Below are positions 58,400 to 63,653 of a stretch of DNA of 64,000 nucleotides, piece after piece; position 1 is the first letter of the stretch, and every line of letters begins with the position of its first letter. This stretch comes from Nitrosopumilus sp. GTDB taxonomy: Archaea; Thermoproteota; Nitrososphaeria; Nitrososphaerales; Nitrosopumilaceae. The DNA lies in assembly GCA_965238275.1 (NCBI GenBank), contig OZ250186.1:768001-832000 (forward strand), in the 5' to 3' direction. Position numbers and translations under genes: made by a program. Under the pieces are notes generated by a model. That model saw only the letters and a list, made by a program, of their open reading frames with translations. It was not told the DNA's origin and made no database searches.

Positions 58400-59260
58400 T
58401 TGCACCGAATCGGCGTGGATCTTGGTGGCACGAAAACCGAGGCCGTACTGCTCAACGAATATCTTGACGTGGTAAGAAGGACCCGCGCCCCCACGCCGGG
58501 GGACTATCCCGGCATTATCGACGTGATATCCCGCCTGGTCGCAGCCATGTCTGACGGCATACCCTCCTACTCTGTCGGCGTGTGCACGCCGGGCATCGCA
58601 CCTGACGATGCCGGGCTGGTAAGAAACAGCAACACCGGCTGCCTGATCGGCCGTCCCCTCAAGAAAGATCTCCAGGACGCCTTGGGCACGAAGATCGTGA
58701 TGGACAACGATGCCAACTGCTTTGCGCTGGCCGAGGCCCGAATGGGTGCCGCCCGGGGGTTTGGGCTGGTCTTTGGCGTGATCATGGGAACCGGCGTGGG
58801 AGGCGGGATTGTCATGGATGGAAAAATCCACCGCGGCCGAAACGGCATCGGGGGCGAATGGGGGCATCAGGTGCTGCACCGCGGCGGGCGTCCCTGCTGG
58901 TGCGGCGGGGCCGGATGCGCAGAGAGGTATCTCAGCGGGCCATCGCTGGAGGCAAGGTGGAAGGAGATTGCCGGCGCGGAAATGCCCATTCCGGAGATAG
59001 TGCGCAACCTCGACTCTGAACCCGGCAGGGCGTGGAGGGACGAGTTTCTAGAGGACTTTGGGTACGGCATTGCCGGCATCATAGACGTGCTGGATCCTGA
59101 CGCGATCGTGCTCGGCGGCGGACTGTCAAACATAGACTTTCTGTACACCCAAGGGGTCGAGTCCGTGCACAACAAGGTCTTCTCGGATCGCCTCGCTACC
59201 CCGATACTGAAAAATGCGCTAGGCGATTCTGCAGGCGTCATCGGGGCCTGCCTGATCTGA
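58400..59260 (+). CDS. ROK family sugar kinase (fructokinase/Mak-like)
   Basis: DLGGTK, NDANCFALAE, GTGVGGG, GEWGH, C.CG..GC.E. Confidence 0.92.
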   Translation: MHRIGVDLGGTKTEAVLLNEYLDVVRRTRAPTPGDYPGIIDVISRLVAAMSDGIPSYSVGVCTPGIAPDDAGLVRNSNTGCLIGRPLKKDLQDALGTKIVMDNDANCFALAEARMGAARGFGLVFGVIMGTGVGGGIVMDGKIHRGRNGIGGEWGHQVLHRGGRPCWCGGAGCAERYLSGPSLEARWKEIAGAEMPIPEIVRNLDSEPGRAWRDEFLEDFGYGIAGIIDVLDPDAIVLGGGLSNIDFLYTQGVESVHNKVFSDRLATPILKNALGDSAGVIGACLI

Positions 59261-59312
59261 GGCCGCGCATTCTTGGGGCGTGATTCTGGCACTGCCTATA
59301 GTGAAAAGCGAA

Positions 59313-60606
59313 AGACGCCATGTGTTGCCGTTGTAACGGTGATCATGGCATTTACCCTGTTGGACCTGAGAGTCGACACGAACTTGCCACTTATGATGGC
59401 GTGCGAAAGAGTGACTCAAGGTATGCGGATGGTCAAATACCGCTTTGACGGTGAATGGGAGTTTTCCGCTGGTCGGGTCCGATATGCTGCAAAGGAGGTG
59501 ATAGCACGTATTACATTGGAATAGACGTTCACAAAAAGAAATGCGTTTCAACCATCAAGGGCAAAACCAACAAGATACTAAGGCAGGCTGAATTTGACAA
59601 TAATGTCCGGGGAATAACCGAATTCGTCAAGATGATCCGCAAGGAAGGATACGTGCCGGCTACGGCCGTCTGCGAATCCACGGCCAACTACTGGATAGTC
59701 GTGCACGACATGCTCGAGGATGTCGGCATCAACACCCTGCTGGCCCACCCACACAACACGAAGATCATAACCGAAACCGTCTACAAAAACGACAAGGCAG
59801 ACTCGGCAAAGCTGGCAGACCTGTGCAGGCTGGACATGATCCCGGAGTCGTTCGTGGCCGACAAGCCCGCGCGGGACCTGCGCGAACTGACCCGCACCCG
59901 CCTGGGCATGAAGATGTACGCCACCGCCCCAAAGAACCGCATCCACGCGATCCTGGCCAAATACCCGCACGAGCAGCCCAAGGGAGGACTTTACGGGACC
60001 TGGACTCGAGTGGCTGCAGGCCGTGCCCCTGAGGGAGGTTGACCGCATGGCGGTGCAGTCGCATCTGGCCACCATCGATACCGTACTAAAGCAGGTGGCA
60101 AAATTTGAAAAAAAGGTAGCCGGGATTGCAATGAGCGACAGGAGGGCACAGCTGATCATGACCATACCCGGAATAGGCTACGTTACGGCAGTAACCATAC
60201 TTGCCGAAATAGTCGACCACAGCAGGTTTGCTGACGCCGAAAAGATGGCCTCATACGCCGGCCTGGTGCCAAAACACCACAACAGCGGGGAGACCGTCAG
60301 GACCGGCGGCATCACAAAACGCGGCTCCGTCTGGCTGCGCCGCGCCATGGTCGAGGCCGCGTTAGTTGCCGTCCAGCACGATGTCCGGATAGGGGCGCGC
60401 TACCAAAGACTGGCAACCCGCATAGGACCCATGAAGGCAAGGGTCGCCGTGGCCAGGCAGATGCTCGAATGGGTCTGGGAGATGCTTGAGCACAGCACCG
60501 AGTACAGGACCCAGGACAGGGATCTTGTAAGACGAAAATTCCAGAGAATAAAACGCATTGCCGACACACAACATCAACGGGTTTGGATGCCCGTAACACA
60601 TGGGAG
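59313..60606 (+). mobile_element. IS110-family element
   Basis: AG core at both junctions (59313-14, 60605-06); subterminal inverted repeat CCATGTGT/ACACATGG; removal restores the host TIR. Confidence 0.87.
59317..59480 (+). ncRNA. Candidate IS110 bridge RNA
   Basis: 5' hairpin, outer stem GGACCTGA/TCGGGTCC and two internal-loop hairpins; loop 1 strands ACACGAACT and GTGCGAAAG match the target, loop 2 ATGGGAG matches the element end. Confidence 0.75.
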
Positions 60607-60643
60607 TTCGTGCAATTTTTTGAGATCCTTTTTAAGAAAATAA
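59506..60643 (+). pseudogene. IS110 DEDD recombinase; ACG in place of the start codon and a frameshift near 60000
   Basis: YIGIDVHK, CEST, KNDKADS, IPGIG, YAGLVP....SG; SD-like GGAGGTGA upstream. Confidence 0.9.
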
Positions 60644-60658
60644 ATCCCAACTACAGGT

Positions 60659-62179
60659 ATGATTGTCAGCAAAATCATCAAGATAACACAATCTCGGGAA
60701 CTGTCACGCAAGATCGTGAAATGCTCCCGGGAAACAGACATCATTTACGACATGACGATCATGATGAAACTCACACATCCCAGAATCACGCAGTTTGATG
60801 TCAACAACCTGATAACAGGATGGCGCAGGGAATTCGGCCTGACCAACAGCGTCCGCATGCATGAGGCCGCCTCAAAACAGGCTTTCCAGGCGGTAGTCAA
60901 ATTCCGCAAGGCAAACCGGCTCAAGCACAACAAGCGCATCTGGCGCAAGAAACAGATCAAGCTGGGGAAAAAGAAGACGTACAGGCACAACAGGTGGACC
61001 GAGCCGTCTGGCCTGATGAGGCGCGGCAGGAAAACAACCAGGCTGCGCTCGCTGAATTCACGCGGAAAGCCAAAACTGCGGGACGACGGCACCGTATTTC
61101 TGCCCGGACTCGGGGAAGTAAGGCCGCGCGTAAAGATCCCGGAAGGCAGGCTCGTGTCATTCCAGATGATTGATGTTACGAAAAAAGTCACGCGCAGGAC
61201 GAAAGATTCTGACTGCGAATTCAGACTGTGCCTGCAAATCGAGGTTCCGGATCCCGAACCCGTGACAGACGGCGACGGCGACAGTTGCAAGGCCGGATTG
61301 GATCTTGGAGTCAGGCACCTTGCGGCAGTCGCAGACGAGCATGGGAATGAAAAACTGTACAATGTCCCGGGAGGCTGCAAGAGGCATGACGGCGACAGGA
61401 TTGATCAGCTGAAATCACTTAGATCAAGATGCCAGACAGGCTCCAGAAGATGGAAAGAGATCGGCCGCAAGATAGCGCATGAATTGAAAAATATATCAAA
61501 CAGGCAAAAACACAACGAGATCGACATTGCCAGGCGGATAACAAAAGGGCTGTCTGCGTTGTTCTTGGAAGACATGGATTTGACCAAGATGAGGCGATCC
61601 AACGGAGCAGCCTCAAAGACTGGGTTGAATCGCGAGATGGCATACTCTAGGATTGGAGAGTTTCGATGCCAGCTTGAATGGCAGATGAAAAAGAAAGGCG
61701 GCGTTGCAAAACGCGTGAAATACAGGTACACGAGCCAGAAATGCGCTGCCTGCCAAATAGTGGACAAGAAGTCCAGAAACGGCGAATCCTTTGTCTGCGT
61801 GTCCTGCGGGTGGTGCCACCATGCCGACAAGAACGCGGCAAAAAACATTTTGGATAATGACTGTCTCCATACGGAGGAGACTGGCGGCCAAGCCCACGGG
61901 AATCGTGGAGGCACCATTGCAGGTGTCGAGGTCGTCACAAGGCGCGAGGATCACGGATCGGATGGTTCTGGAATGAACGATTCGACAAGCCGGCTTGGAC
62001 CCGGCAACAAGGAGGATGATGTTGGAAGATCTGACAGAGCGCCGGAAAGAGCATCAGGACATGCTACAGAGAGATCTGTTTGCACGAACTTTCGCTCGCC
62101 GCTATACTACCTGAACGCACCTGATCGCACTATTGCATCTCGATCGTGGACGGGGGCTTGCTTGATATCGCGTACGTGA
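60659..62179 (+). CDS. tnpB: TnpB RNA-guided nuclease with intact RuvC triad
   Basis: GLDLG, LEDMD, TSQKCAAC..FVCVSCG, HADKNAAKNI; low-complexity tail reads through the element end. Confidence 0.92.
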   Translation: MIVSKIIKITQSRELSRKIVKCSRETDIIYDMTIMMKLTHPRITQFDVNNLITGWRREFGLTNSVRMHEAASKQAFQAVVKFRKANRLKHNKRIWRKKQIKLGKKKTYRHNRWTEPSGLMRRGRKTTRLRSLNSRGKPKLRDDGTVFLPGLGEVRPRVKIPEGRLVSFQMIDVTKKVTRRTKDSDCEFRLCLQIEVPDPEPVTDGDGDSCKAGLDLGVRHLAAVADEHGNEKLYNVPGGCKRHDGDRIDQLKSLRSRCQTGSRRWKEIGRKIAHELKNISNRQKHNEIDIARRITKGLSALFLEDMDLTKMRRSNGAASKTGLNREMAYSRIGEFRCQLEWQMKKKGGVAKRVKYRYTSQKCAACQIVDKKSRNGESFVCVSCGWCHHADKNAAKNILDNDCLHTEETGGQAHGNRGGTIAGVEVVTRREDHGSDGSGMNDSTSRLGPGNKEDDVGRSDRAPERASGHATERSVCTNFRSPLYYLNAPDRTIASRSWTGACLISRT

Positions 62180-63653
62180 CCAGCGTGACGTCCTCGATCT
62201 CGTTTGTAATGCGGTTGCTCATCCTCTCCAGGACATCGTGGGGCAGCCTGGTCCAGTCGGCAGTCATCGCATCTATGGAATCGACTGCCCTGATGATCAC
62301 TATGTTTCCGTACCTTCGCTCGTCTCCCACTACGCCTACGGCCCTGTCATCGCCCACTGTAGCATATGCCTGCCATATCCCCTCGTACAGTCCGGCCTTG
62401 ATCAGCTCGTCCTCGACTATCCTGCTTGCCCTCTTGGCAATGTTGAGCTTGGCAGGCGTTATCTCCCCGATGATTCTTACTGCCAGGCCGGGACCGGGAA
62501 ACGGATGTCTGGTGAGTATCTTCTCAGGAACCCCCAGAATCCCTGCAATCTTTCTCACCTCGTCCTTGTACAGATCCCTTAACGGCTCCAGGACATCCAG
62601 ATGCAGCCAGTCAGGCAGCCCTCCCACGTTGTGGTGAGTCTTTATCACGGCTGCAGGCCCCTTTGATACCCCGCTCTCGATGACGTCCGGATAGAGCGTG
62701 CCCTGCGCCAGCCATTTGAACGGACCGTTCTGTTCGGCAAACTCTGTAAAGACATGGACAAACTCCTCCCCTATTATCATCCTCTTCCTCTCCGGGTCAG
62801 TTACCCCCCTTAGCCTCTCCAGAAACCTCTCTGATGCCTCAATGGCAGTAAAGTTTACGGCAAAGTTGTCCCTGAACATCCTCTCCACCTCGGCCCCCTC
62901 GTCCATTCTCAGCAGGCCGTTATTCACAAAGACACACTTGAGCCTGTCCCCTATGGCCCTGTGGATGATGAGTGCTGCAACTGTCGAGTCGATGCCCCCG
63001 CTGACACCGCACAGCACGTTGCCTTCGATCCCCGCGATGCCCCTGACTGCCTCCTCTACGAACCCCTCCATGGTCCACTCCTGGCCTGCCCCGCACACAT
63101 CAAGTACAAAATTACCAAGAATTCTGGTTCCCTTCTCGGTGTGCGCCACCTCCGGATGGAACTGGATTCCGTATACGGGCCTCTCCTCTGAGACGATTGC
63201 AGCAGCCTTTACGTTATCTGTATGTCCTATAACCCTGAATCCCGGAGGTACTGCCTCTGCCTCGTCGCCGTGGCTCATCCACGCCTTTACAGAATCCCCT
63301 ATTCCTCCCAAAAGATCGCCTGCGTCATCTATCCTGAGTTGTGCCGAACCGTACTCCTTGTTTGCCCGCTTTACCCTTCCGCCGTGCCTGTCCACAATAA
63401 GCTGGTGCCCGTAGCAGATTCCAAGTATGGGAAGCCCCATCTCAAAGATCCCGTCGTCTGGCATGGGGGCATCCTGCTCGTATACGCTTGACGGACCGCC
63501 TGACAGAATGATTCCCTTGGGGTTGCGTTTTTTCAGCTCCTCGCAGGTAATGTCATAGGGAACCAGCTCTGCGTACACTGAGAGATCCCTTATCCTTCTG
63601 CAGATTAGGTGGCTGTACTGTGATCCAAAATCTAGCACCGTGATCCTGTCCAT
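62130..63653 (-). CDS. guaA: GMP synthase (glutamine-hydrolysing)
   Basis: LDFGSQY, GICYGHQ, QFHPEV, SGGIDS, QGTLYPDVIES, HPFPGPGL, SKPP.TIE. Confidence 0.97.
   Translation of the reverse strand: MDRITVLDFGSQYSHLICRRIRDLSVYAELVPYDITCEELKKRNPKGIILSGGPSSVYEQDAPMPDDGIFEMGLPILGICYGHQLIVDRHGGRVKRANKEYGSAQLRIDDAGDLLGGIGDSVKAWMSHGDEAEAVPPGFRVIGHTDNVKAAAIVSEERPVYGIQFHPEVAHTEKGTRILGNFVLDVCGAGQEWTMEGFVEEAVRGIAGIEGNVLCGVSGGIDSTVAALIIHRAIGDRLKCVFVNNGLLRMDEGAEVERMFRDNFAVNFTAIEASERFLERLRGVTDPERKRMIIGEEFVHVFTEFAEQNGPFKWLAQGTLYPDVIESGVSKGPAAVIKTHHNVGGLPDWLHLDVLEPLRDLYKDEVRKIAGILGVPEKILTRHPFPGPGLAVRIIGEITPAKLNIAKRASRIVEDELIKAGLYEGIWQAYATVGDDRAVGVVGDERRYGNIVIIRAVDSIDAMTADWTRLPHDVLERMSNRITNEIEDVTLVTYAISSKPPSTIEMQ

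Follow-up and report, generated by a model that had tools for sequence, protein, structure and literature searches.

A defective IS110-family element and its predicted bridge RNA in the terminal inverted repeat of a TnpB transposon of Nitrosopumilus

Introduction

What directs an IS110-family element into the end of another transposon? The question is raised by a 64,000-nt stretch of the genome of the archaeon Nitrosopumilus sp. (assembly GCA_965238275.1, contig OZ250186.1, positions 768,001 to 832,000), here called the window, in which such an element interrupts the terminal inverted repeat (TIR) of a transposon that carries tnpB. An earlier interpretation made from the letters only (the sequence-only reading) held that the element encodes a bridge RNA whose target loop spells this TIR. 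It also held that the system is an archaeal one, programmed to parasitise and probably immobilise the TnpB transposon. In our interpretation, the window holds a defective copy of an IS110-family lineage that uses a bridge RNA encoded in its left end, and the target loop of this RNA specifies the TIR site. We give this a probability of about 0.88. The structure of the RNA is seen in covariation, guides match flanks across many independently targeted copies, and a second insertion occupies the same site.

Results

Insertion site and guide sequences

The element (Table 1) has AG at both junctions (59313-59314 and 60605-60606), and uninterrupted sites contain a single AG; therefore, the insertion produced no target duplication. 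When joined, the flanks GCGAA-AG (59308-59314) and AG-TTCGTGC (60605-60613) give GCGAAAGTTCGTG, which is the reverse complement of the 13-mer CACGAACTTTCGC. The 13-mer is uninterrupted at 62083-62095, in the opposite TIR. The 2.2-Mb genome has 22 occurrences of it, 11 in left and 11 in right ends of TnpB elements and none elsewhere.

The sequence GTGCGAAAG was read at 59401-59409. Both strands of the putative target loop fall in one internal loop, in the minimum-free-energy fold of 59307-59500 as well as in the consensus fold of 10 homologues. The 5′ strand (CACGAACU) would pair with the sense strand of the right half-site and the 3′ strand (GCGAAAG) with the antisense strand of the left half-site, and both would cover the AG/CT core. 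Recombination at the core would then have placed the element in a non-autonomous TnpB element, 19 bp into its left TIR of IS630 type, with no duplication of the target. Reading the sequence from 58800 to 62400 bore out all coordinates of the sequence-only reading. Its central claim, that the loop strands specify the 13-mer of the insertion site, agrees with the sequence and with the permutation tests given below.

A DNA search with the RNA region in 60 relatives returned a single 21-nt match outside the genome of the window. As this search was uninformative, homologues were found by protein. The N-terminal half of the recombinase matched 11 loci in metagenome-assembled genome (MAG) records of Nitrosopumilus or Nitrosopumilaceae and one Dehalococcoidia contig. 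Recombinase matches were present in 40 of the 401 genomes of the family (the genome of the window included; one further genome was left out afterwards), and 40 more copies were fetched. The earlier description of the system as archaeal thus fits. The Dehalococcoidia case (L056) is a 67%-identical element with a matching RNA and a 7/7 match to its left flank, at the end of a 46-kb contig of a Dehalococcoidia MAG. Its placement reflects a horizontal transfer or an error in binning.

The alignment showed conserved stems and hypervariability of both strands of the first loop. On the left side 59 of the 61 copies were tested; two were dropped, as too little sequence lay upstream or the guide contained a gap. 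In 36 of these 59 copies, the best match to the 3′-strand 8-mer within 150 nt upstream lay exactly 43 nt before the model start, that is, at the element boundary, and 48 had AG at this fixed boundary. Positions 2-8 of the 8-mer matched the flank and position 1 did not. Right ends were sought with an exact 7-mer and located in 33 of the 61 copies; the 28 copies without one in range were excluded. On the left, own guides matched the flank at a mean of 4.15 of 6 positions and the guides of other copies at 1.88; on the right, the means were 3.39 and 1.90 of 6. Each difference was reached in 0 of 10,000 permutations, figures that overstate the case because copies from the same genome or from related ones do not count as independent. 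When each guide was counted once, 22 of 34 distinct 3′-strand guides had a copy matching at 5 of 5 positions, and 26 had one matching at at least 4 of 5. For the distinct 5′ guides, the counts were 6 and 10 of 23. The right-side pairing was shorter and noisier than the left-side pairing, and one copy fits the right-side register shifted by one base.

Two irregular cases were seen in this set. In one subgroup (alignment A4: L110, L073, L085, L086, L057, L059 and L072), AC replaces CT at the core positions of the target-loop 5′ strand while the flank is still AG, a natural core mismatch in one guide. In one genome that holds L060, L058 and L061, the guides of L060 share the specificity of L061, yet its left flank fits the guide of L058. 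This mismatch could result from an RNA acting in trans between copies or from a later change of the loop.

Could the match in the window be due to chance, or to a piece of the TIR that the element has captured? The target is partly palindromic and its AT and GC contents are balanced, and 64 kb of DNA will contain many short matches. However, 6 + 5 non-core positions match in a fixed register, for which hand arithmetic (not a tool result) gives a chance of about 4^-11. The 13-mer is confined to TIRs, and the same loop-flank pattern recurs with unrelated target sequences in other genomes. The comparisons of own with other guides on both sides and the counts of distinct guides also contradict this explanation, which we consider scarcely credible.

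Structure of the bridge RNA

The consensus fold of the 10 homologues consists of two stem-loops, each with an internal loop. A covariance model built from homologues, which had been suggested earlier as a check, was constructed from four helices and returned 82 matches (54 distinct) among 87 loci. In its alignment 97.5% of cells pair, compared with 30-48% when the partners were slid. Compensatory changes on both sides were found in 10 of 20 pairs, and the covariation score was reached by 0 of 500 shuffles. These pairing and covariation figures lean towards structure because the sequences are related to one another and had been aligned by fitting to the model. The basal stem takes another form in the other subgroup (GCCTGA/TCAGGC), offset by one column. 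Because of this offset it was left out of the model, and it rests on the single-sequence fold and inspection, with no formal pair count. As to the stems that close the first loop, the outer one (GAGTCG/TGACTC) stands as first proposed; the proposed inner one (GCCA/TGGC) is a single-sequence version that the consensus replaces with TGCC/GGCG.

The model matched only the upstream region of a full-length copy and nothing downstream of the gene. Full-length relatives possess a 3′ non-coding region of about 310-370 bp, which the window copy has lost. Of 17 homologues in which this region is long, 12 have a conserved GC-rich hairpin there (GCGTTTCGCCGCCCC ... GGGGCGGCTCAACGCC), and the bridge-RNA covariance model did not match this hairpin. 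The full-length region is present in c2148k and c504k, two other copies in the same genome, and in L053, L054, L066, L068, L070, L096, L100, L102, L105, L129 and L131.

Another explanation takes the conserved, structured 5′ region for a leader that acts in translation or transcription of the recombinase gene, has the protein pick the site, and treats the likeness of loop and flank as a by-product. The consensus fold of the long alignment pairs an invariant AAGGAGG with an upstream CCU stretch, and the donor loop overlaps an ATG, as a leader might. Against this, the loops differ between copies exactly as the flanks do, with a perfectly matching copy for 22 of the 34 distinct guides, and the stems are maintained by compensatory change. 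A site determined by the protein would give no reason for the loops to track the flanks, so we regard a leader as very improbable. In addition, the published accounts of IS621 and ISEc21 describe a layout like that of the window as experimentally shown to guide recombination. The bridge-RNA reading is strongly supported. The RNA is presumably transcribed and a circular intermediate presumably forms, and the chemistry of strand exchange would, by homology, be that of IS621. No circle junction was found in the contigs of four DNA runs, among which no contig piece spanned the locus. Contig joints from 59314 to 60616/60618 were considered as an empty site and rejected, as they represent uninterrupted TIRs that cannot be assigned to the locus. 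Inspection by eye only revealed no AT-rich promoter box near the circle junction of the window subgroup, from which no conclusion was drawn.

Donor loop and handshake positions

ATGGGAG is found at 59455-59461, in the second loop, and again at 60600-60606, at the right end, in accordance with the earlier observation. Thus, the donor-loop 3′ strand (AUGGGAG in the RNA) would mirror the right end plus the core, and the 5′ strand would partly mirror the left end. The 3′ strand reads ATGGGAG, equal to right end plus core, in nearly all copies. One subfamily changed both together, with GATGGAAG in the donor loop and ...ACACATGGAAG at the right end. In most subfamilies, 4-6 positions of the 5′ strand follow the left end, read as its reverse complement. 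Directly after the 3′ target guide come two bases equal to the first two of the element (consensus AC), as in a handshake. The second of them agrees in 36 of 49 copies (0 of 10,000 permutations). The two 3′ strands of the window also resemble the recombinant junctions (left, 8 of 9 positions; right, all 9). Together with the RNA structure and the guide-flank covariation, this donor-loop covariation upholds the assignment to the IS110 family with a bridge RNA.

Two fragments in the same genome (L008, 1089330-1089476, and L009, 1091184-1091322) contain the 5′ part only and end exactly after the donor-loop ATGGGA, a stretch identical to the right end of the element; their flanks do not match their guides. 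The DNA that encodes the RNA may have been mistaken for a right end during recombination.

Other copies in the genome

The sequence-only reading had suggested looking for other copies in the same 13-mer, and one was found. Copy c2148k, 99.9% identical, is inserted into this 13-mer as well; its position and orientation are those of the window copy, and the left end that it interrupts belongs to another TnpB copy. In copy c504k (93% identical), the 3′-strand guide is GCAAAAG, and the copy lies in the site GCAAA-AG-TTTGTG, the left end of a TnpB element only 43% identical, with one G:T pair to its 5′ guide. In copy c1289k, guide and left flank both read TCAAAAG. The guides of the fragment c1920k are GCAAAAG and ACAAAAACT, and its predicted site is uninterrupted twice elsewhere, in TIRs adjoining genes with a DDE_3 domain. 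Uninterrupted cognate sites in a TIR context thus exist elsewhere for the guide pairs of c1289k and c1920k. On the left, the guides of c1089k and c1091k missed at two positions each and that of c1926k at one.

The bridge RNA may be real, and the window copy and c2148k may nevertheless be one insertion that was copied between TnpB elements by gene conversion or homologous recombination. The two copies are 99.9-100% identical and carry the same 2-bp frameshift, the TIR and the interior of the left end beside both insertions are identical over the stretch shown, and an intact recombinase of the lineage is absent from the genome. However, the TnpB bodies of the two hosts are only 91% identical and their outer flanks differ. 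The window copy has an additional 309-bp deletion, and versions with an intact frame occur in other samples, so that a source of enzyme existed. The match of guides and flanks across the family is independent of this pair. We consider such copying improbable.

Recombinase gene

The IGID, CEST, NDKAD and NSG stretches of the two recombinase halves align with the corresponding stretches of IS621 (solved IS621 and ISCro4 transposases). Acidic residues in the first three stretches are presumably the catalytic ones. The conserved serine of IS621 is named S241 (PMC11208160 / PMC11208158). In plasmid sequence searches, identity was 23-43%, mostly to unnamed 'IS110 family' genes.

At the expected position of the start codon (59506-59508) the window has ACG, and the frame is open from the ATG at 59455, which is located within the donor loop. 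This ACG is common to all copies in the genome and to L053 and L054, the subgroup of the window; in the distant homologues L056 and L058, ATG follows a few bases after the invariant AAGGAGGTG. Owing to the deletion in the 3′ region, the C-terminal frame runs past the right end into the TnpB element.

The copy in the window is not a working system. All four long copies in the genome are broken, and the genome has no intact recombinase of the lineage. The window copy and c2148k have a common 2-bp deletion, c504k has a 92-bp insertion and further indels, and c1289k has an internal deletion. With its frameshifted gene, its deleted 3′ non-coding region and none of four long copies intact, the window copy is a fossil. 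Contigs of the public runs X7 and X9 have TG after 59989 and hence an unbroken frame, so intact versions exist in other populations, and open frames of 372-387 amino acids exist among relatives. The same genome also contains other, distant IS110-family genes (28-34% identical) at 1923539-1924633, 287433-287948, 1064151-1064417 and 1204515-1204790, one of them with an open frame of 371 amino acids.

Nature of the targeted TIR

The ends of the TnpB elements are imperfect inverted repeats of 27-28 bp that start with TATAG, and their flanks are compatible with a TA duplication. No match to the Y1 transposase of IS200/IS605 was found in the genome. The IS630-type DDE_3 domain had 34 matches (32 above the cut-off), and a closely related TIR was found at the expected place of the left end for three of the 16 DDE_3 genes examined. 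No DDE gene lies inside the TnpB copies. TnpB-only derivatives with IS630-type ends are a class noted in PMC10691335. Given the lack of Y1, the DDE_3 matches and the related TIRs near DDE_3 genes, a TnpB-only derivative with IS630-type ends is the best reading of the targeted element, which would be mobilised in trans. As in the IS630-linked TnpB elements described in PMC10691335, TnpB lies between symmetrical inverted ends and not between the asymmetric ends of IS200/IS605. The copies in this genome differ from them in having tnpB alone, with the DDE_3 genes and related TIRs in separate elements. Because this TIR is common to TnpB carriers and DDE_3 transposons, the specificity is for a TIR family and not for TnpB as such. 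The idea of a system aimed at the TnpB transposon is therefore correct as to the site and too narrow as to the owner of the TIR.

Is the element then programmed to attack the TnpB transposon, which its insertion immobilises? Three of the four long copies are inserted in the left end of a TnpB element, the insertion breaks the TIR 19 bp from the tip, and the guides track TIR variants. However, among the sites with the 13-mer, only two of 13 left-end and none of 11 right-end sites are occupied by the element. The TIR family belongs to DDE_3 (IS630-type) elements too, which are likewise hit or targetable, and related IS110 subfamilies use sites unlike TIRs. Other members of the IS110/IS1111 groups target repeats and transposons without antagonism being shown in the published text (PMC11208160, PMC11187229). 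An attack seems rather unlikely to us. A safe landing site that exists in many copies is at least as likely an explanation as the immobilisation of TnpB, and such a transposon end most probably offers the element a harmless place to insert; disabling of the TnpB element by the insertion is possible but unproven.

Table 1. Coordinates of the features of the element, its predicted RNA and the interrupted TnpB element in the window.
Feature	Position	Strand	Basis or remark
Outer 19 bp of left TIR of TnpB element (CTATAGTGAAAAGCGAAAG)	59296..59314	+	sequence; same TIR uninterrupted at 11 other left ends
Left half-site GCGAA + core AG	59308-59314	+	sequence
IS110-family element, defective, 1292 bp with right-end core AG counted	59315..60606	+	ends set by comparison with copy c2148k and uninterrupted TIRs
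Predicted bridge RNA: 5′ hairpin, target-binding stem-loop, donor-binding stem-loop	~59315-59485	+	
5′ stem-loop, includes left subterminal inverted repeat CCATGTGTT	59317..59349	+	single-sequence fold
Basal stem 5′ arm GGACCTGA, pairs with 59473-59480	59362..59369	+	minimum-free-energy fold
Target-loop outer stem 5′ arm GAGTCG, pairs with 59412-59417	59370..59375	+	helix 1: 96.8% paired, compensatory in 4/6 pairs
Target-loop 5′ strand ACACGAACT	59376..59384	+	CACGAACT within complementary to + strand of right flank AGTTCGTG (60605-60612)
Target-loop inner stem-loop (TGCC ... GGCG)	59385..59401	+	helix 2: 99.1% paired, compensatory in 2/4 pairs
Target-loop 3′ strand TGCGAAAGAG	59402..59411	+	GCGAAAG (59403-59409) identical to left flank + core; AG (59410-59411) at handshake positions
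Target-loop outer stem 3′ arm TGACTC	59412..59417	+	consensus fold, covariation
Donor-loop outer stem 5′ arm GCGGA, pairs with 59465-59469 (TCCGC)	59425..59429	+	helix 3: 96.2% paired
Donor-loop 5′ strand TGGTCAAA	59430..59437	+	partial match (TGG) to reverse complement of first bases of element; in other subfamilies, positions 1-5 or 1-6 follow that of the left end
Donor-loop inner stem-loop (TACCG ... CGGTG)	59438..59453	+	helix 4: 98.1% paired, compensatory in 3/5 pairs
Donor-loop 3′ strand AATGGGAGTTT	59454..59464	+	ATGGGAGTT within identical to right junction 60600-60608
Basal stem 3′ arm TCGGGTCC	59473..59480	+	minimum-free-energy fold
AAGGAGGTG, just 5′ of recombinase start	59492..59500	+	invariant in 10/10 aligned homologues
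Recombinase N-terminal half, DEDD/RuvC-like domain	59455..60042	+	PF01548, E 4.8e-19; aligns to IS621 and ISCro4 transposases
2-bp deletion splitting recombinase frame	59989..59990	+	copies c504k and c1289k hold two extra bases there
Recombinase C-terminal half, Transposase_20 domain with serine motif NSG	60023..60643	+	PF02371, E 2.2e-28; aligns to IS621 chain residues 157-289
Scar of 309-bp deletion in 3′ non-coding region, between two copies of 12-bp repeat	60553..60564	+	copies c2148k and c504k retain 309 and 307 bp
Right end: subterminal inverted repeat AACACATGG (60595-60603), then G, then core AG (60605-60606)	60595..60606	+	
Core + right half-site AGTTCGTGC	60605..60613	+	
Remainder of TnpB element	60607..62106	+	PF07282, PF01385
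tnpB frame	60659-62179	+	
Right TIR, holding intact 13-mer at 62083-62095	62080-62106		

Discussion

Several observations weigh against a bridge RNA that specifies this site, in addition to the dependence among copies, the model-fitted alignment and the 28 copies without a located right end mentioned above. Eleven of 59 copies have no AG at the fixed boundary, and eight of the 34 distinct 3′ guides match at 3 of 5 positions or fewer. The flanks mismatch in L060 (both sides), L053 (right) and L058 (right). In the window copy, the donor-loop 5′ strand matches at only 3 of 6 positions, the partial match that had been remarked on earlier. The fold of 59307-59500 is no stabler than those of shuffled sequences (z -1.19; 30 of 200 fold as well). 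An Rfam scan of 58500-62600 with E values up to 10 found no matching family, its sole match being at chance level (COG2908, E 7.4, 14.3 bits compared with a gathering score of 58.7). A look-up of RNA runs that contain the region listed none. Finally, the window copy and c2148k share a frameshift in a genome without an intact recombinase of the lineage, and the route of their spread is unexplained.

The window element resembles IS621 in several respects. Both have a recombinase with a DEDD/RuvC-like domain, a Tnp domain and a conserved serine (PMC11208160, PMC11208158). As described in PMC11208160, the RNA of IS621 is likewise encoded in the left end, 5′ of the gene, with a 5′ stem-loop, a variable target loop and a conserved donor loop. 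In both, all guides overlap a dinucleotide core (CT on one strand) and two handshake positions follow the 3′ guides (PMC11208160, PMC11208158). The target guides of IS621 are described as 7 nt plus core and 2 nt plus core, whereas both guides of the window are about 5-6 nt plus core, and the host of the window element is an archaeon.

The order of the guides differs. IS621 and ISEc21 have a 5′ guide for the bottom strand and a 3′ guide for the top strand (PMC11208160, PMC11208158, PMC11187229). In the seekRNAs of the IS1111 type, the complement of the top strand precedes that of the bottom strand (PMC11187229). Unlike the guides described for IS621 and ISEc21, the 5′ strands of the window pair with the sense strand of the right halves; on the left flank, the 3′ target strand pairs with the antisense strand. 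This is the IS1111 order of PMC11187229, an assignment that depends on taking the 'top strand' of the papers as the sense of the element. As the 5′ strands pair with the sense strand, the core is AG when read along the RNA and CT only on the antisense strand. The CT core that had been compared with that of IS621 is thus present on the strand antisense to the RNA, and the guide order is of the IS1111 type rather than that reported for IS621 and ISEc21.

The ends also combine features of both groups. The window element has a perfect 9-bp subterminal inverted repeat (CCATGTGTT at 59318-59326 and its counterpart at 60595-60603), compared with inverted repeats of 2-3 bp described for the IS110 group. 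The extensions beyond this repeat are 3 + 3 bp if the core is counted on the right, or 5 + 1 bp if it is counted on the left. Subterminal inverted repeats and orientation-specific insertion without duplication are shared with the IS1111 elements ISEc11, ISKpn4 and ISPa11 (PMC11187229). However, the repeats described there are 11-13 bp with extensions of 7 (left) and 3 (right) bp, compared with 9 bp and 3 + 3 here, and the RNA lies 3′ of the gene there and 5′ of it here (PMC11187229). A few IS1111 exceptions with an upstream non-coding region, such as ISMtsp17, are mentioned (PMC11187229), so the arrangement of the window may not be unseen.

In the strict sense of the IS110 group (IS621, ISEc21) as its published descriptions give it, the upstream RNA is present, but the guide order and the absent or very short repeats are not. 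In the corresponding sense of the IS1111 group, the guide order agrees, but the lengths of repeats and extensions and the downstream RNA do not. The element belongs to the IS110 family in the broad sense, having both Pfam domains, the aligned residues, the layout of the RNA, the matching of guides to flanks and of the donor loop to the ends, and junctions with the same dinucleotide. It is a system of a known kind in an unusual arrangement that fits neither published subgroup definition: an upstream RNA, the IS1111-type order, a 9-bp repeat and an extra conserved 3′ hairpin.

IS4321/IS5075 of the IS1111 family reportedly target the TIRs of Tn21-family transposons. The natural target of ISEc21, a conserved stretch of IS3-family transposase genes, is also described as lying inside another mobile element (PMC11187229). 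The window differs from these cases in its archaeal host, in its target, which is the TIR of IS630-type elements (a TnpB-only derivative among them), and in the coexistence of several retargeted variants in one genome. In the part of the literature that was searched, we found no IS110-family element aimed at the TIRs of TnpB or IS630 elements in archaea, although such elements may already be listed in supplementary tables (PMC11208160, PMC11187229, the Vaysset preprint). Archaeal IS110 recombinases have already been catalogued, 662 according to the text of the Vaysset preprint.

It is possible, though we hold it only tentatively, that within single Nitrosopumilaceae genomes a bridge-RNA lineage with IS1111-type polarity and an upstream RNA has diversified by stepwise retargeting of its target loop along variants of IS630-type TIRs, including those of TnpB carriers. 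The copies would then be a natural record of an RNA-guided element that tracks the ends of other elements and disables these by splitting them. No new mechanism is revealed by the window, which represents a real but expected archaeal case of RNA-guided transposition. The list of landing sites of the IS110 and IS1111 groups grows by IS630-type TIRs, among them those of a TnpB-only element. The dozens of copies with different guides and cognate sites, with a retargeting series in one genome, form a natural data set for archaeal bridge-RNA targeting, and these archaeal copies could inform the rules of guide length and mismatch beyond the IS621 model.

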